From: Enterobacteria phage ATK47
Sequence record: NC_055708.1
Reading direction: 5' to 3' (one strand)
DNA: 64,000 nucleotides
A program made the translations under genes and the position numbers. Below are positions 1,121 through 51,322 of this stretch, one piece after another. The notes under the pieces are model-generated. The model was not told the origin of the DNA and did no database searches. It was given only the letters and a program-made list of their open reading frames with translations. Position 1 is the first letter of the stretch, and each line of letters opens with the position of its first letter.

Positions 1121-2689
1121 TTAAATTCCTTTAACGTAGACGCGTCTAAAGTAAGCGTTCTTACCAAGGCTGTTCAGGATAGACGGCATACCGGACTGGA
1201 TGCGAGCACCTGGAGCCTGCAGGGAACTTTCAGCAAACGGGTTAACACCGATACCGTAACGAGTTTTAAAGCCCATTACCGGCTGGAAGTTCTTAGGATC
1301 GGAACCACGCAGTGGGGTAAGTGCAACGTAAGGAGCATAGTAAATACCTGCATCCATTTCGTTAGCGCCTTTGTAACCAACGGTGAAGTAATCCTGTTTA
1401 GCATACTGGTCGATGTATACGCGGTATTTACCACCAAGTACACCGGCAAATACAGACTTAGTAGTGTCGGTATTAAAACCAGAAGCCAGACCCTGTGCAG
1501 CGTAAGAAATACCAGTATCAACTGAAGCCAGTACGTTAACTACGTTACGGGAAGCGATAATGAAGTTACCTTCACCACGACCGGTTTGACGAGCAATTTC
1601 AACTGCTTCTTTATCAATCTGGAACAACAGAGATTTAAAGCTTTCACCGGCCCAACGAGCACCACGGATATCAATCGGGTCCTGGAAGTCAAATACACCA
1701 GCTTTAGAACCCGGAGTCAGGGTCATACCAGATTTACCAACCTGTGCCGAGTAGTTAATCCAATCAACAACTTCACGGTTGATTTCTAGCATAATTTCTG
1801 TAGCCAGAATACCGCTCAGTTCAGCATCAGCATCCATACCGTGTACTGCACGGAGGTCTTGTGCCAATTCGATGGAGTAAGCAGCTTTCAGCTGGCGAGA
1901 TTTAGCTTCGATAACTTGTTTATCGATACGGAAGCCCATTTCGTTCCACGGGTTGTCGGTAGAACCGTTGAAACCTTCCTGGAGTTCAGCGATAGAAGTA
2001 GCCATACCTTCAGCGATTTCTACCAGTGCACCAGCTTCCATTTGTTTCTTAACTTCTGCATCTAATTTAGCTGCATCAGTTGCACCAGAATCAAGTGTTA
2101 CGATAGCAGAAGCTTGCAGATATACAGTACCAGTTTCTTGGAAGAAGTGAGTATAGATATCACCTACAACGGTAGTAGTGTCAGCAGCCAGAGCTGGGAA
2201 TTTCTTAGCAGCACCCTGACCAGAGAACATCGCGTCCGGGGCATACATCGGATGGAAAGCTTCTTTAGCGCCAGCAGCGATAGGGTCTTTACCATATACT
2301 GCACGGAGAGCAAATACCTGACCGGTAGGGCTGTTCATAGGCTGAACACCACAAATATCAAAAGCGATCAGATTAGGAATAGCACGACGAACCATACCCA
2401 TAACTGCCGGCCCAATTTGGGTTACTGCACCAGAGGTTTGACCTGCTGCGATGTTCTGAGCATTATAACCGTGGTCACCACCAATTTCAGCTTCGGTCAA
2501 GAAAGAACCAAATGCCTGAGCGATTTTCTCGTCTTTATATTCAGGGGATACTTCGAAATCTTTTTCCTGGTTTTCGAAGATTTTAGCGATAATAGCCTGC
2601 TTGCTATTAGCGATTTCCGGCAGGCCTTCACCTTCCAGCAGTTCTTTCCATTTGTCTACGAGCTGAGCTTTAGTTTTGATAGTAGTCAT
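1121..2689 (-). CDS. 23: major capsid protein gp23
   Basis: 521-aa product near-identical over full length to T4 gp23 as recalled (MTTIKTKA...FRRVYVKGI). Confidence 0.97.
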   Translation of the reverse strand: MTTIKTKAQLVDKWKELLEGEGLPEIANSKQAIIAKIFENQEKDFEVSPEYKDEKIAQAFGSFLTEAEIGGDHGYNAQNIAAGQTSGAVTQIGPAVMGMVRRAIPNLIAFDICGVQPMNSPTGQVFALRAVYGKDPIAAGAKEAFHPMYAPDAMFSGQGAAKKFPALAADTTTVVGDIYTHFFQETGTVYLQASAIVTLDSGATDAAKLDAEVKKQMEAGALVEIAEGMATSIAELQEGFNGSTDNPWNEMGFRIDKQVIEAKSRQLKAAYSIELAQDLRAVHGMDADAELSGILATEIMLEINREVVDWINYSAQVGKSGMTLTPGSKAGVFDFQDPIDIRGARWAGESFKSLLFQIDKEAVEIARQTGRGEGNFIIASRNVVNVLASVDTGISYAAQGLASGFNTDTTKSVFAGVLGGKYRVYIDQYAKQDYFTVGYKGANEMDAGIYYAPYVALTPLRGSDPKNFQPVMGFKTRYGIGVNPFAESSLQAPGARIQSGMPSILNSLGKNAYFRRVYVKGI

Positions 2690-2706
2690 TTGTGTTAACC
2701 TTTAAA

Positions 2707-3519
2707 TTAGAAACGAGATGCGACTTTCGCATATAAACTTACATTAGAATTCTGTTCTACCTGAGTTGTGGTAGTGTCAACTGCTTCGGCAACAAAATTA
2801 AGACCGGCAGCGTCATTGTCAACTGTATTTATACTTTCGGTAATAGCGGCTTCTTCTTTAGTAGAACCTTTAACCATTTCTACAATAGCAGTTAACTTAG
2901 TACCAAATGCGTCAGAATAATCCATACCTTCAACCAGGCCAATAACTTTTTCTTTCTGAGATTCAGTCAGGTCTTTTACGCTTTCATTAATAGCGGTTTC
3001 ACGCTGAACGTAATTGATATATGCATCACGTTTGGTAACTTCTTCGAACAAACGAGCGGTTTCTTCTTTATGTTCGGCCAGCTCTTCTTCCATTTCTGCT
3101 ACAACATCTACAGATTCTTCTGGAACAACAACGTTATGTTCAACAAACAGTTCTTTCAGACCACCAAGCATGGATTCGAACAAATCAGCTTTAATGCCTT
3201 TATCAACTGCGATTTGGTTTTCTGCGAGCCATTCTTTTGCAAGATGGTCTAGGAATTTAGAAGCTTGTTCAGCCAATTTTTTATCAGCTTTCTCTTCAGC
3301 ATCTTCTTTGGCCTTTTCAACTTCTTCTTCAGCCTTTTCGGCGATGGCTTTGATATGAGATTCAGCCAGTTTGACTGCTTCCTGCTTAACGGTGGCTTCG
3401 AATACAGTGCTGAAATTAGCTTTAACGTCCGGAGACAGTTCTACTGATTCGAAAACACTATTAAGAGCAACTGAAGTCTCGATGTTCTGAGCTTCTTTCA
3501 AAAGTTGTTCTTTGATCAT
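2707..3519 (-). CDS. 22: prohead core scaffold protein gp22
   Basis: 270 aa, acidic helical protein, immediately upstream of 23; size and synteny as T4 gp22. Confidence 0.85.
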   Translation of the reverse strand: MIKEQLLKEAQNIETSVALNSVFESVELSPDVKANFSTVFEATVKQEAVKLAESHIKAIAEKAEEEVEKAKEDAEEKADKKLAEQASKFLDHLAKEWLAENQIAVDKGIKADLFESMLGGLKELFVEHNVVVPEESVDVVAEMEEELAEHKEETARLFEEVTKRDAYINYVQRETAINESVKDLTESQKEKVIGLVEGMDYSDAFGTKLTAIVEMVKGSTKEEAAITESINTVDNDAAGLNFVAEAVDTTTTQVEQNSNVSLYAKVASRF

Positions 3520-36335: not shown

Positions 36336-36800
36336 ATGAAATCATACGCTGAATTTTTGACTGAACAATCTAGTTCAGATGTAAAAGCCGCTGCGATTGC
36401 AGCAATTCAAGCAGGTAAATATTCTTACAAAGACGCCTCTGATGAAGAACGTTTCCGTTTTATTAGAGATTTTAAAGCCGAAGGTTTTACTAATGCTAAT
36501 ACTGTTAGCCGAGTTTTTAAAAGCCTAGCTGCATCAGGTGAATTGTTCCAGAAAGCTACAGGTAAAGCACCTGCGCCAAAAACAGACCCTAAAGCAGCTC
36601 AAGAAAAAAATATCGCCAAAGGAATTATTTCTAAGTATGAAGCAATTCTTAAAGAGCTTTTAGTAATCAAAACAGAAGGCCAGAAACTGGCACGAGCACA
36701 TAGCTTCAAAGATAATCCTCACGCTCATAGCCTTGAGTATGTTGAAGATATCCAAAAACTTATTAAAGACCGTATCTGGTCTGCTAAACAAATTAAATAA
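36336..36800 (+). CDS. internal protein-like (CTS leader)
   Basis: 154 aa; N-terminus MKSYAEFLTE matches CTS pattern. Confidence 0.7.
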   Translation: MKSYAEFLTEQSSSDVKAAAIAAIQAGKYSYKDASDEERFRFIRDFKAEGFTNANTVSRVFKSLAASGELFQKATGKAPAPKTDPKAAQEKNIAKGIISKYEAILKELLVIKTEGQKLARAHSFKDNPHAHSLEYVEDIQKLIKDRIWSAKQIK

Positions 36801-36806
36801 TAGAAT

Positions 36807-36835
36807 GCCCCTTCCTTATGGTTGGGGCCTTTTGG
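36807..36835 (+). terminator. rho-independent terminator (repeat copy 2)
   Basis: GCCCCTTCCTTATGGTTGGGGC followed by CTTTTGG. Confidence 0.65.
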
Positions 36836-43633: not shown

Positions 43634-43866
43634 GTATAGCAATTTACATTAAATCAGAATCATGTGATAGTTATCTGTACACATATGATAAAGATGTGTC
43701 AGAAGAAAAAATCAAAGACGACCTTAATACGGACCTTGATATGTTCTGTCCTATTGCAGATTACAAACTTGCGGTCTCTAATAGTGAAAGTCCATCTAAA
43801 GAAACGCGCATTGAAGAATTTATGTCTGAATTAATGGCCAAATCATGGGACCGAGATGATGAGTAA
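43630..43866 (+). CDS. hypothetical acidic protein (78 aa)
   Basis: ATG 43630 overlapping previous stop. Confidence 0.55.
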   Translation: MSIAIYIKSESCDSYLYTYDKDVSEEKIKDDLNTDLDMFCPIADYKLAVSNSESPSKETRIEEFMSELMAKSWDRDDE

Positions 43867-44314
43867 GAAAAATAAAGTGAAAGAGCTATCAGCCGGTATT
43901 ATTTTCCTTACCGAAGATAAAGAGTTATTCATGGGGCGTGTAACTGGTTCTCGTCCTAAAGGTGCATTAACTCATCGGTGGGATATTCCTAAAGGCCGTG
44001 TCGAACCTGGCGAATCTCCTATTGAAGCCGCTATTCGTGAATGCGAAGAAGAAACTGGGTTTACACAATATGACCCTGCCTTCCTGAAAGACCTAGGTGA
44101 ACATCATTACTCAGACAATAAGAATATTCATCTGTTCCTATATACCATCCCTGTAGAGCACGAGCAATTCAGAAACAGTGTTTGTAATTCCTATCATACA
44201 TTCCAAGACGGACGACAGATTCCTGAATTTGATGCATTCGCTTTAATTAAACCTTCTCAATGGGAATATGTAATGGGCAAATCGTTATATAAGGTGCTCA
44301 CTACCCTCCTATAA
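43856..44314 (+). CDS. nudE: Nudix hydrolase
   Basis: Nudix box GRVEPGESPIEAAIRECEEETGF; immediately upstream of lysozyme as T4 e.1. Confidence 0.85.
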   Translation: MMSKKNKVKELSAGIIFLTEDKELFMGRVTGSRPKGALTHRWDIPKGRVEPGESPIEAAIRECEEETGFTQYDPAFLKDLGEHHYSDNKNIHLFLYTIPVEHEQFRNSVCNSYHTFQDGRQIPEFDAFALIKPSQWEYVMGKSLYKVLTTLL

Positions 44315-48145: not shown

Positions 48146-48604
48146 ATGACTATCAATTCAGACGTTTTTATCCGCCGCAATAAACTCCGTCGAATCTTTG
48201 AAACGGAGTTCCGCAAAATAAATGCCAGTATAAAAGATGCTGCAAAGTCTCTTGGACTACCAGGCTTTCATATCAAGTATTCTCAACATCTCTTAGATCG
48301 TGCCATCCAGAGAGAAATAGATGAGAATTACGTTTTTGAATTATTTCGTAAAGTAAAAAATCATGTTAAAGAAGTTGCAGAATTTTTATCAATGCCGGCA
48401 CGTCCAGATGTTGATGAAGATTTTGTCGAAGGTGTAGAATATCGCCCAGGCCGTTTAGAAATAACTGATGGAAATCTTTGGTTAGGACTTACAGTTTGTC
48501 GCGAAAATCCGGCATTCAAAATGAAGACTCTTCAATGCAGAATGGCTATTATTAACAATAAACGACTACCAGGAAAAGCTTCTAAAGCAGTGATTAAAAT
48601 CTAG
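48146..48604 (+). CDS. regB: RegB endoribonuclease
   Basis: MTINSDVFIRRNKLRR...YSQHLLDRAIQREIDE; near-identical to recalled T4 RegB. Confidence 0.95.
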   Translation: MTINSDVFIRRNKLRRIFETEFRKINASIKDAAKSLGLPGFHIKYSQHLLDRAIQREIDENYVFELFRKVKNHVKEVAEFLSMPARPDVDEDFVEGVEYRPGRLEITDGNLWLGLTVCRENPAFKMKTLQCRMAIINNKRLPGKASKAVIKI

Positions 48605-48612
48605 AGGTAAAC

Positions 48613-49155
48613 ATGAGAAAAGCACTACTCGCTGGTCTATTTGCTCTTTCATTATCAGCACATAGCTCCGAGCATACTTTTAGTAATGTCCAACTCGATA
48701 ACTTGAATTATGCTTATCAGTTTGGGGAACAGTTTTCTAAGGATGGAAAATTTAAAACGCATGAAAATATGCATAAGAAAGGACTTGGATACATAATGGC
48801 CGCAATACTATGGCAGGAATCATCTGCTGGTATTAATCTTAAAGATAAGAAAGGTCACCATGCGTATGGAATGTTCCAAAATTATCTACCAACAATGAGG
48901 GCAAGAATTAACCAGCTTGGTTATAATATGACTGATGCCCAAATTAAGAAAATGCTATCTAAGCGGTCTAATTCAACCAGATGGGCTTATATCGAATTTT
49001 CTTATTGGTTAAATATACATAATGGGGATATAAGAAAAGCTATATCCTCATACAATGCGGGATGGAAGACAAGTGCTGGAAGTAAATATGCTTCTGAAGT
49101 CCTAGAAAAGGCTAATTACCTTAAATCAAATAAACTACTGGAAATAAAAGAATGA
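48613..49155 (+). CDS. secreted lytic transglycosylase-like protein (SLT domain)
   Basis: N-terminal signal peptide (LLAGLFALSLSAHS); motifs WQESS, YGMFQ, SYNAGW resembling SLT family E-S / GLMQ / AYNxG. Confidence 0.55.
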   Translation: MRKALLAGLFALSLSAHSSEHTFSNVQLDNLNYAYQFGEQFSKDGKFKTHENMHKKGLGYIMAAILWQESSAGINLKDKKGHHAYGMFQNYLPTMRARINQLGYNMTDAQIKKMLSKRSNSTRWAYIEFSYWLNIHNGDIRKAISSYNAGWKTSAGSKYASEVLEKANYLKSNKLLEIKE

Positions 49156-49499
49156 CCAAAATGTTAGCTTTAATAGTTGGCTTGGTTTCATTTAACGCTC
49201 TTGCTAATACTACATATACTGATGTAACGGAGTATACAAACAGAACGGCGTCTGATTATTGTGGTAAAAGTCAAGAGTGTAAAGTAGATTTTTCACAAAA
49301 ATTGTTATATGCGTATAAAGACGGAGAAAAAGATGGGGCGTCTAGTAGGTTCAAGGCGTCTACCTTAATTAAAAGATACTATAAAAAATGGCAAATATTA
49401 GAATGCTCGGTGGCGGAACCTAAAGATAAGGCAGCATGCAATTCTATGGTGGACCGCCTAGTTGACTCTTATACTAGAGGACTTGCAGCAAGTGATTAA
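49152..49499 (+). CDS. secreted Cys-containing protein (115 aa)
   Basis: Signal peptide MLALIVGLVSFNALA; four Cys in mature part. Confidence 0.55.
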   Translation: MTKMLALIVGLVSFNALANTTYTDVTEYTNRTASDYCGKSQECKVDFSQKLLYAYKDGEKDGASSRFKASTLIKRYYKKWQILECSVAEPKDKAACNSMVDRLVDSYTRGLAASD

Positions 49500-49959
49500 A
49501 AACTATATCAAGGGCGATATTGTCGCCCTGTTTTCTAAAGGTAATAATATTGCTCATGGGTGTAATTGTTTTCATACAATGGGCGCCGGTGTGGCAGGAC
49601 AATTAGCAAAGGCTTATCCAAAAATTCTGGAAGCCGATAAACTTCAAACCGAATTCGGAGACGAGTCTAAACTCGGGACTTATTCGGTTTATGAAAAATA
49701 TTTTAAGACCCATAAAGCTTATTGCTTTAATCTTTATACGCAGTTTGAGCCGGGACCTAATTTTGAGTACTCTGCTTTAATGAATTGTATAATAGAATTA
49801 AATGAATTTGGAAAGAATAAGATAACAAAGCCTGTAATTTATATGCCAAGAATTGGTGCAGGTATTGGTGGTGGAAACTGGGATGTCATCGAAGAGATTT
49901 TAGATACGTATTCCACTAAACTAGAAATTGTGATTGTTGATTGGGAACCGTTATTATGA
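49492..49959 (+). CDS. macro-domain-like protein
   Basis: GDIV...IAHGCNCFHTMGAGVAGQLAKAYP and PRIGAGIGGGNWDVIEEIL resemble macrodomain motifs; start GTG 49492 proposed (ORF track start TTG 49462). Confidence 0.45.
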   Translation: MIKNYIKGDIVALFSKGNNIAHGCNCFHTMGAGVAGQLAKAYPKILEADKLQTEFGDESKLGTYSVYEKYFKTHKAYCFNLYTQFEPGPNFEYSALMNCIIELNEFGKNKITKPVIYMPRIGAGIGGGNWDVIEEILDTYSTKLEIVIVDWEPLL

Positions 49960-50168
49960 ATATACATTATCCACATCCATATGATCCAAAGAATAAGGCA
50001 GTAATTATTCGTCAATGGGAACGCATTTGTCGTACTAAATGTCCAATTAATAGTCCACATGATGTAGATAAAGACTACATCGGAACATTCGTTGAATATA
50101 CCTTTATTGATAAGAAAGGCCGTAAACAACATGTAGAAGAATATTGCTTAAAGGTGACATGGCTATGA
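49956..50168 (+). CDS. hypothetical protein (70 aa)
   Basis: ATG 49956 overlapping previous stop. Confidence 0.5.
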   Translation: MNIHYPHPYDPKNKAVIIRQWERICRTKCPINSPHDVDKDYIGTFVEYTFIDKKGRKQHVEEYCLKVTWL

Positions 50169-50371
50169 GTCAAACAAAAATTCTTACAGGTGCTAAATGC
50201 GAAAAATGCGAATGGCCTGTAGTTTTTGCTTTATGCAATGACGAAATGGCTTGTGATTTTGATTATTGGTGTTACTGTTCGAACAAAGGTTGTAGCAATC
50301 ATAAAGGTGAAGGGTTTTACTCAGGATTTTACCCTTACCCAGATTTCGTTAAAGAAGGTGAACCTAAATGA
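50165..50371 (+). CDS. Cys-rich small protein (68 aa)
   Basis: Nine Cys in CEKCEW...CNDEMACDFDYWCYCSNKGC; SD AAGGTGA. Confidence 0.5.
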   Translation: MSQTKILTGAKCEKCEWPVVFALCNDEMACDFDYWCYCSNKGCSNHKGEGFYSGFYPYPDFVKEGEPK

Positions 50372-50550
50372 AATTGACTAAAGAAGAGAAAACTAAACTG
50401 TTTGAACTTATCCATGACCTATTGGATGAGCAAGCAGCCACCAATGCGTATGATGAATATGCTCCTTTGACGGACGAAGAATATCAAGCATTGTTGGAAT
50501 CATTTGACAGGAAAGAACAAGAACTCATTGACTACGTGAATTCGTTATGA
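50368..50550 (+). CDS. hypothetical acidic protein (60 aa)
   Basis: SD AAGGTGA; ATGA junction. Confidence 0.5.
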   Translation: MKLTKEEKTKLFELIHDLLDEQAATNAYDEYAPLTDEEYQALLESFDRKEQELIDYVNSL

Positions 50551-50732
50551 TTACTCGCCAACAGAAAGAAGAAATAATTTATTTGTCTAATGAAATACGG
50601 TTAGCAGAACAAGCTTATGAATGGGAACATTCATCGTATTTCTCGTCTAAACTGGCAAAACAACTTGCAACACAAGAATTGGAAGATGCTCAAAAAGCAT
50701 TGGATGATTATTTAGAACGAATTACCGAATAA
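50547..50732 (+). CDS. hypothetical protein (61 aa)
   Basis: ATGA junction. Confidence 0.45.
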   Translation: MITRQQKEEIIYLSNEIRLAEQAYEWEHSSYFSSKLAKQLATQELEDAQKALDDYLERITE

Positions 50733-50740
50733 GGACTCTT

Positions 50741-51322
50741 ATGGCTAGTTTAATTTTTACATATGCCGCTATGAACGCTGGTAAGTCTGCTTCATTACTT
50801 ACTGCTGCACATAACTATAAAGAACGTGGCATGGGTGTATTAGTTCTTAAACCGGCTATTGATACTCGTGATTCAAAAGGTGAAATAGTCTCTCGTATTG
50901 GTATTCGTCAGGATGCCAATATAATTACAAAAGACATGGATATCTTTGAATTCTATAAATGGGCTGCAGCACAAAAGGATATTCACTGTGTATTTGTTGA
51001 CGAAGCTCAGTTCTTAACTACTGAAAAGGTGTATCAACTTAGTCGTATTGTTGACGTATACAATGTGCCGGTAATGGCATATGGACTACGAACAGATTTT
51101 AAAGGTAATCTATTTGAAGGTTCTCAAGCATTAATGGCTATTGCCGATAAGCTTGTTGAACTTAAAGGTGTCTGTCATTGCGGTAAAAAGGCCACAATGG
51201 TAGCTAGAGTCACGGAAGACGGACTTCCAATTACAGATGGCAGTCAAATTGAAATTGGTGATACCGATAGATACGTGTCATTATGCCGGAAGCATTGGAA
51301 TGATTTGACAGGGTTGTTATAA
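50741..51322 (+). CDS. tk: thymidine kinase
   Basis: MASLIFTYAAMNAGKSASLL...; near-identical to recalled T4 Tk. Confidence 0.95.
   Translation: MASLIFTYAAMNAGKSASLLTAAHNYKERGMGVLVLKPAIDTRDSKGEIVSRIGIRQDANIITKDMDIFEFYKWAAAQKDIHCVFVDEAQFLTTEKVYQLSRIVDVYNVPVMAYGLRTDFKGNLFEGSQALMAIADKLVELKGVCHCGKKATMVARVTEDGLPITDGSQIEIGDTDRYVSLCRKHWNDLTGLL

Follow-up and report, generated by a model that had tools for sequence, protein, structure and literature searches.

What does a T-even phage gain from carrying a macrodomain? The question is raised by an open reading frame (ORF) at 49492..49959 (+) in Enterobacteria phage ATK47 (sequence record NC_055708.1), from which a stretch of 64,000 nucleotides (nt), the window, was analysed. 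The ORF starts with GTG, ends with TGA (49957-49959) and encodes 155 amino acids; its product is called here the window protein. A preliminary description, made from the sequence alone, had recognised at this place a macrodomain-like protein of roughly 155 residues in the regB-tk interval, and had suggested that it could reverse DarT-type ADP-ribosylation of DNA or tune the phage's own ADP-ribosyltransferases. The analysis summarised here indicates that the window protein is a single-domain macrodomain of the TARG1/ALC1-like class, orthologous to Tk.4 (AdfM) of phage T4, and that with good probability it acts in counter-defence by hydrolysing the thymidine-ADP-ribose marks made by the toxin DarT2. 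The anti-DarTG2 role is already known, as it has been published for the T4 ortholog, and the macrodomain has been recognised since the annotation of the T4 genome; in itself, therefore, the finding adds little, being that of an ordinary T-even gene with an ortholog already characterised.

Fold, class and active site of the window protein

Profile searches place the window protein among the macrodomains. It matches the Pfam family Macro (PF01661) with 28.3 bits (E-value 1.9e-6), above the gathering score of 22 bits and over profile positions 2-117 of 118, and PHROG 335 with an E-value of 4.7e-67. A search of the PDB with the single sequence retrieved BT_1257 of Bacteroides thetaiotaomicron (6.5e-11) and yeast Poa1p (1e-8), and also SCO6735 of Streptomyces coelicolor, DarG and TARG1, while a family profile built from 53 relatives matched BT_1257 (8e-17), TARG1 (7e-16, over the full length), SCO6735 (2e-14), Poa1p (2e-13) and DarG (4e-13). 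The AlphaFold2 model obtained with the family alignment is of very high confidence (predicted local distance difference test, pLDDT, 95.8; predicted template modelling score, pTM, 0.91) and has the three-layer alpha/beta fold of macrodomains, and not the unrelated fold that would have told against the preliminary description. Its top Foldseek matches in the PDB are all macrodomains, with TARG1 first (3.8e-10) and Poa1p, DarG, BT_1257 and SCO6735 among them. On the basis of the profile matches, the model and the Foldseek matches, the window protein is a single-domain macrodomain of the TARG1/ALC1-like class and not of the MacroD class.

The motifs that had been read from the sequence are all present, namely G8-D9-I10, IAHGCNC (residues 20-26), MGAGVAGQLAKAYP (30-43) and the glycine-rich PRIGAGIGGGNWDVIEEIL (119-137). 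The preliminary description had likened the first of these motifs to the MacroD-type NAAN...GGGV, and this has to be corrected, as H-G-C-N-C is the TARG1/ALC1-like version. Across the 53 relatives C26, G33, A35, D49, L61, G62, N80, Y82, T83, Q84, P119, I121, G122, G124 and W130 are invariant, and H22, G23, C24 and N25 are conserved in at least 90% of the family alignment. In the following, all codon positions refer to the + strand. The first active-site motif, H22-G23-C24-N25-C26 (codons 49555..49569), is defined by the family alignment and the solved homologs; H22 and N25 align with H24 and N27 of SCO6735, and N25 also with N23 of a protein of phage PhiKZ likewise named AdfM. It is followed by the loop G31-A32-G33 (49582..49590), a GxG loop of the kind described as part of the ADP-ribose cleft (PMC9503650). 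The glycine-rich second phosphate-binding loop, P119-R-I-G-A-G-I-G-G-G-N-W130 (49846..49881), aligns with GCGLDRLQW of TARG1. Both glycine-rich loops are thus recognisable, and G31, G33, P119 and G122 are invariant in a multiple alignment of eight macrodomains, for which the homolog sequences were taken from the PDB search outputs.

The catalytic position lies at the end of N80-L81-Y82-T83-Q84 (49729..49743), a segment supported by invariance in the family, by the alignment of the profile to TARG1 and by the multiple alignment. Q84 aligns with K84 of TARG1 in the profile alignment and, in the multiple alignment, with K80 of DarG (the lysine of its FPTK motif), Q85 of SCO6735 and the corresponding Gln of BT_1257, while G126 occupies the position of TARG1 D125 in both. 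The register of the alignment was checked on SCO6735, whose construct numbering reproduces the published H24, V25, N27, K34, Q85, K89 and K93.

These positions distinguish the window protein from its solved relatives. Human TARG1 (OARD1) has a Lys84/Asp125 dyad where the window protein has Gln84 and Gly126. The presence of Gln at SCO6735 position 85 is known to set SCO6735 and the ALC1 homologs apart from TARG1 and DarG (PMC9411070). SCO6735 and BT_1257 share with the window protein the Gln at the catalytic position, the first-motif His and Asn, the single domain and the lack of a toxin partner, but they have HxCND and NMIGQ in place of HGCNC and NxYTQ. Furthermore, the extended loop of SCO6735, QHGMKTGSKGAPVRY, corresponds to QFEPGPNFEY in the window protein, which has no lysine, and SCO6735 Val25 (the Val/Ile that follows the motif His) corresponds to the conserved Gly23. 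Because Gln, His and Asn are shared with SCO6735 but the long lysine-bearing loop, Lys34 and Val25 are absent, the window and T4 proteins seem, as far as their sequences tell, to form a third flavour, in which Gln-type chemistry would be combined with a loop of DarG/TARG1 length. For experiments, this means that a catalytically dead control would be Q84A or N25A rather than a lysine mutant.

The closest characterised relative is T4 Tk.4 (NP_049723), with which the window protein shares 130 of 154 residues (84%) in a gap-free alignment (E-value 6e-104). The two have the same length, the same position between vs and tk.3, a homologous start position and all the family-invariant residues. They differ in the start codon (ATG in T4, GTG in the window), in the overlap with vs (4 nt in T4, 8 nt in the window), in the second loop (GIGKGNW in T4, GIGGGNW in the window protein) and in the genus of the phage (Tequatrovirus for T4, Mosigvirus for the window phage). 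In the comparison with T4, synonymous sites are near saturation (dS, the synonymous substitution rate, 1.24) and the ratio of nonsynonymous to synonymous rates (dN/dS) is 0.07, a combination from which strong purifying selection on the gene can be deduced at the sequence level. The gene order regB-vs.1-vs-tk.4-tk.3...tk is common to T4, ATK48, O157tp3 and KMB42, and Gelderlandvirus and Jiaodavirus retain the regB-tk block with one extra ORF. By tblastn, relatives are present in 2798 of 50,697 phage records, from many host genera, in agreement with a survey in which Macro domains were found in 41% of myoviruses (PMC9503650).

Probable counter-defence against DarTG2 and competing functions

For the T4 ortholog the physiological condition in which the gene matters has been established by genetics. 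T4 lacking both adfA and adfN, the latter being gene 30.3, which encodes a NADAR enzyme that counters DarTG1, was still resistant to DarTG2, and a further factor was predicted (PMC11825919). In November 2025, a T4 transposon sequencing (Tn-seq) library grown on a DarTG2 host gave tk.4 as the single significant hit; T4 with a clean knockout of it became sensitive to DarTG2, from which the new name adfM, for anti-DarT factor macrodomain, was given (bioRxiv 10.1101/2025.11.20.689424). The first of the two roles suggested in the preliminary description, reversal of DarT-type DNA modification, is thus supported by the published genetics of an 84%-identical ortholog, and by analogy counter-defence is the most likely job of the window protein.

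In the proposed mechanism, DarTG2 of the host would release DarT2, which would place ADP-ribose on thymidines of single-stranded phage DNA and thereby block replication. The window protein would bind the ADP-ribose via the GxG loop and the glycine-rich PRIGAGIGGG loop, and would hydrolyse the bond between thymidine and ribose, giving free ADP-ribose and DNA that can be replicated again. Catalysis would depend on Gln84, with His22 and Asn25 positioning the distal ribose and the water molecule, as has been proposed for SCO6735, and the catalytic lysine of the DarG/TARG1 type would not be used. The biochemical precedents are the stand-alone SCO6735, which reverses thymidine ADP-ribosylation by DarT both in vitro and in cells and loses its activity in the Q85A mutant, and TARG1, which also reverses DarT marks on DNA (PMC9411070). 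By analogy with these proteins, we infer that the window protein has the same activity as its homologs, and that hydrolysis, rather than binding of the toxin, protects the phage.

Several points weigh against this interpretation. The function of the window protein is transferred from its T4 ortholog, and for T4 AdfM itself the removal of ADP-ribose is an inference of the authors, who state that it "seems likely" (bioRxiv 10.1101/2025.11.20.689424). The mobile loop is 5-6 residues shorter than that of SCO6735 and lacks Lys89 and Lys93, and Lys34 and Val25 of SCO6735 are replaced by Ala32 and Gly23; therefore, the SCO6735 mechanism may not transfer exactly. Moreover, the class acts also on Asp/Glu-linked ADP-ribose on proteins, O-acetyl-ADP-ribose, ADP-ribose-1''-phosphate and phosphate-linked ADP-ribose on nucleic acids (PMC9411070, PMC9503650), and with such a wide substrate range DarT2 marks need not be the sole substrate. 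Lastly, since catalytically dead SCO6735 still inhibits DarT through binding (PMC9411070), protection without hydrolysis is possible.

This last point leads to the alternative that survives best, improbable as we consider it, namely that the phage is protected mainly by an interaction in which the window protein binds and blocks DarT2, with hydrolysis secondary or absent. Besides SCO6735 (Q85A), which is the strongest, the dead variants of DarG (K80A) and TARG1 (K84A) also inhibit DarT in vitro (PMC9411070). However, the window protein does not have the C-terminal toxin-binding domain of DarG, its bacterial relatives have no DarT partner (none in the 25 most frequent neighbour families), and the active-site residues H22, N25 and Q84 and the glycine loops are strictly conserved in phage and bacterial relatives, which argues for catalysis.

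Whether the window protein is itself a DarG was also considered, because PADLOC and NCBIfam both return that family. The match of the window protein to the DarG profile of PADLOC (9e-9) concerns the macro part only, and with NCBIfam DarG (NF048014) it reaches 31.9 bits against an equivalog cut-off of 250. The DarG profiles comprise 329-338 positions, of which a protein of 155 amino acids covers only 4-146, leaving out the C-terminal DarT-binding domain. The catalytic lysine of DarG, Lys80 in the FPTK motif of the Taq protein (for its role see PMC9411070), is replaced by Gln84, and no darT gene adjoins the macrodomain gene of the window, the neighbours of which are vs and tk.3. Membership of the DarG family is excluded on the score, the missing C-terminal domain, the missing lysine and the lack of a darT neighbour.

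The hydrolysis of DarT2 marks has also to be weighed against the name under which the gene was long annotated. The T4 reference record describes tk.4 as "phosphatase; contains A1pp phosphatase motif", the label of PHROG 335 is likewise phosphatase, and Poa1p and the window protein have the H-x-C-N-C motif in common. The protein would then be a Poa1p-like ADP-ribose-1''-phosphate phosphatase, clearing a by-product of RNA 2'-phosphotransferase reactions. Of the residues probed in the Poa1p structures (H23, S30 and F152, as named in PDB titles), H23 falls on H22 and S30 on T29 in a pairwise alignment. The phosphatase reading we regard as very improbable: the label is a transfer at the domain level, from the similarity to Poa1p, with no assay behind the name; a source of the substrate, in the form of a Tpt1/KptA-type enzyme, is not seen in the neighbourhood of the gene; Poa1p has FTSSFGG where the window protein has LYTQFEPG, and thus not the invariant catalytic Gln; and the phenotype of the T4 knockout is specific to DarTG2 (bioRxiv 10.1101/2025.11.20.689424).

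An equally slight chance is given to a function on proteins, either in reversing attacks by host ADP-ribosyltransferases or in tuning the modifications made by Alt, ModA and ModB of the phage, which is in part the second role suggested in the preliminary description. The Alt and Mod enzymes modify arginine, and their genes are unlinked to that of the macrodomain. TARG1 and SCO6735 do remove modifications from proteins as well (PMC9411070), and T-even phages do encode ADP-ribosyltransferases (PMC9503650), but the literature cited here does not list ADP-ribosylated arginine among the substrates of macrodomains of this class, and the T4 mutant has no reported defect in the absence of DarTG2 (bioRxiv 10.1101/2025.11.20.689424). 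Reversal of the Alt/Mod arginine modifications is therefore unlikely, and the suggestion of a tuning role finds no support. The least likely alternative, drawn by analogy, would make DarTG2 one target among several, the others being RNA ADP-ribosylation (CmdTAC-like) or ADP-ribose-derived signals such as the glyco-cyclic ADP-ribose (gcADPR) of Thoeris: Macro domains have been proposed to act on soluble ADP-ribose derivatives and nucleic-acid marks (PMC9503650), the authors of the AdfN study expect counter-defences that detoxify other DNA or RNA ADP-ribosylation (PMC11825919), and the family is widespread in the phage records, but SCO6735 is, as published, inactive on 2'-OH RNA ADP-ribosylation and, according to the results section of a paper the discussion of which says the opposite, on 5'-phosphate-linked ADP-ribosylation.

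Phage and bacterial relatives

The name AdfM has been given, in independent papers, to a second phage protein. PhiKZ gp104 clears DNA of DarT2 marks in vitro, is weakened by the N23A mutation and is imported into the phage nucleus (Cell Rep 2026, PMC13309987). Its sequence, translated from the construct printed in PMC13309987, is DarG-like (E-value 9e-25 to DarG of M. tuberculosis) and contains the FPTK lysine motif, and BLASTP aligns it with the window protein over only 23 residues. The two proteins have in common that they are phage single macrodomains countering DarTG2 and that they conserve an Asn (N23 in PhiKZ, N25 in the window protein). To our knowledge, T-even phages have no phage-nucleus compartment. 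Given the short alignment and the DarG-like character of the PhiKZ protein, identity with PhiKZ AdfM was rejected, and for the same reasons the name covers two different lineages, which converged on one kind of counter-defence. A name shared by the Gln-type T4 Tk.4 and the Lys-type PhiKZ gp104 could mislead annotation based on homology.

Relatives of the Gln type were also found in bacteria. A scan with one genome per species gave 256 relatives, and the best 80 of the 256 loci were inspected; in 78 of these 80 an ORF was recognisable, nearly always of about 150 amino acids and with HGCNC, and the N-x-Y-T-Q motif occurs in 72 of the 78. When 95 same-strand neighbours were compared with Pfam, DarT was absent from the 25 most frequent of 59 families, so that a rare neighbour of this kind may have been missed. 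The neighbours are mixed housekeeping genes, for example those for aspartate-semialdehyde dehydrogenase and pyridoxal phosphate (PLP) enzymes, and an ileS-macro-lspA arrangement occurs in Hyphomicrobiaceae. A NADAR gene (PF08719, 2e-37 to 5e-53) and the start of the macrodomain gene overlap in five loci, three from Ruegeria genomes and two from Bacteroidales metagenome-assembled genomes, the pairs lying at 2523-3447 in locus L034, 2444-3447 in L051, 2472-3447 in L068, 2511-3441 in L037 and 2520-3441 in L073. Such a NADAR-Macro cassette would parallel the AdfN and AdfM of T4, which are unlinked.

As the bacterial relatives stand in housekeeping or NADAR contexts and without a frequent DarT neighbour, an origin from a stand-alone bacterial macrodomain seems to fit better than one from the DarG antitoxin, and may be taken as a lead; together with the Gln-type site, these relatives bear on the question of where phages obtained the gene. 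A further, rather doubtful proposal is that proteins of the Tk.4 type are not "orphan DarG antitoxins" but the phage members of a separate and very widespread stand-alone clade, marked by HGCNC, N-x-Y-T-Q, the catalytic Gln and the short loop, the bacterial members of which may be general enzymes for the repair of base-linked ADP-ribose on nucleic acids, with the phage copy as a possible broad-spectrum eraser. Were this true, the phage copy would defeat several ADP-ribosylating defences beyond DarTG2.

Some details of the bacterial loci may be added. In four of them, from Hyphomicrobiaceae and related Alphaproteobacteria (L015, L027, L036 and L038), the gene immediately 5' of the macrodomain gene encodes a class I tRNA synthetase, which accounts for 4 of the 95 neighbours, and in L015 and L038 lspA, for signal peptidase II, follows directly, the macrodomain gene being apparently inserted into an ileS-lspA-like operon in a purely housekeeping setting. 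By what is probably a coincidence, T4 tk.4 likewise follows vs, which encodes a valyl-tRNA synthetase modifier. One of the NADAR proteins has a weak match to the T4 gp30.3 family.

Gene order and the 5' end of the gene

The interval named in the preliminary description is bounded as it had stated, by RegB at 48146-48604 (PF10715, 1.9e-69) and thymidine kinase, Tk, at 50741-51322 (PF00265, 7e-57). Immediately upstream of the macrodomain gene is vs (49152..49499, +), located from the annotations of KT184310 and T4 and the ORF list, and immediately downstream is tk.3 (49956..50168, +), annotated as such and assigned to DUF7202 (Pfam PF23832, 1.6e-38). The end of vs overlaps the start of the macrodomain gene by 8 nt, and the stop of the latter overlaps the ATG of tk.3 by 4 nt (ATGA); with these overlapping starts and stops, the three genes are packed as one translationally coupled unit. 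A Shine-Dalgarno-like GAGGA, read from the sequence at 49477..49481 (+) within the 3' end of vs, lies 11 nt 5' of the GTG, and GAGGA is also found 5' of the ATG of T4 tk.4. An alternative TTG start at 49462, which would add 10 residues inside vs, was rejected, because the GTG at 49492 aligns with the ATG of T4 tk.4, has the GAGGA in front of it and coincides with the start given in the annotation of the near-identical O157 typing phage 3. The upstream partner has a phenotype of its own, as in minimal medium no T4 gene was depleted more strongly than vs, according to the preprint that defined adfM (bioRxiv 10.1101/2025.11.20.689424); vs and adfM are coupled neighbours, yet their conditional phenotypes are unrelated.

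The 5' end of the ORF contains a G+C-rich hairpin, GGGCGAUAUUGUCGCCC, with a U-run on its 3' side (49511..49529, +), which starts 20 nt into the gene and was detected as a terminator-like match of unproven role. T4, ATK48 and KMB42 share the 27-nt hairpin block without a difference, despite the near-saturation of synonymous sites elsewhere in the gene, and the region 49475-49537 folds better than its shuffled versions (z -2.5); in the minimum free energy structure, the U-run and the Shine-Dalgarno region are base-paired to each other. No covariation was found in the hairpin, which is absent from the Gelderlandvirus, Jiaodavirus and Acinetobacter relatives, and a conserved RNA element was set aside on these two grounds. 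The hairpin could serve in translational control or in attenuation, or could be a footprint of recombination.

Over 3.5 kb spanning the ORF, the window shows 100% identity with Enterobacteria phage ATK48 (KT184310, genus Mosigvirus), and with many sister phages the identity is 98.6-99.2%; sister records carry the macrodomain gene under the names "macro domain protein", "phosphatase" or "Poa1p-like family protein". The tRNA positions are shifted relative to KT184310 by the same offset. In KT184310 the gene is uncalled, with no coding sequence between vs and tk.3. The annotation of the ATK48 record can therefore be corrected, as the macrodomain gene and two neighbouring ORFs were missed.

Other observations concern the surroundings of the gene. 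About 5 kb upstream, at about 43856-44314 of the window (36360-36818 of KT184310), lies nudE (T4 e.1), encoding a Nudix hydrolase active on ADP-ribose; as speculation only, NudE could consume ADP-ribose released by the macrodomain. The three ORFs that KT184310 leaves uncalled in this region are at 49492-49959, 50165-50371 and 50547-50732. These are the macrodomain gene, a Phage_zn_bind ORF (PF23895, 3.5e-29) and a second DUF7438 ORF, a tk.1/tk.2-like paralog. In most sister Mosigviruses the alignment extends over only 95% of the 3.5 kb and a single ORF of such size precedes tk; one DUF7438 copy is apparently missing from these phages.

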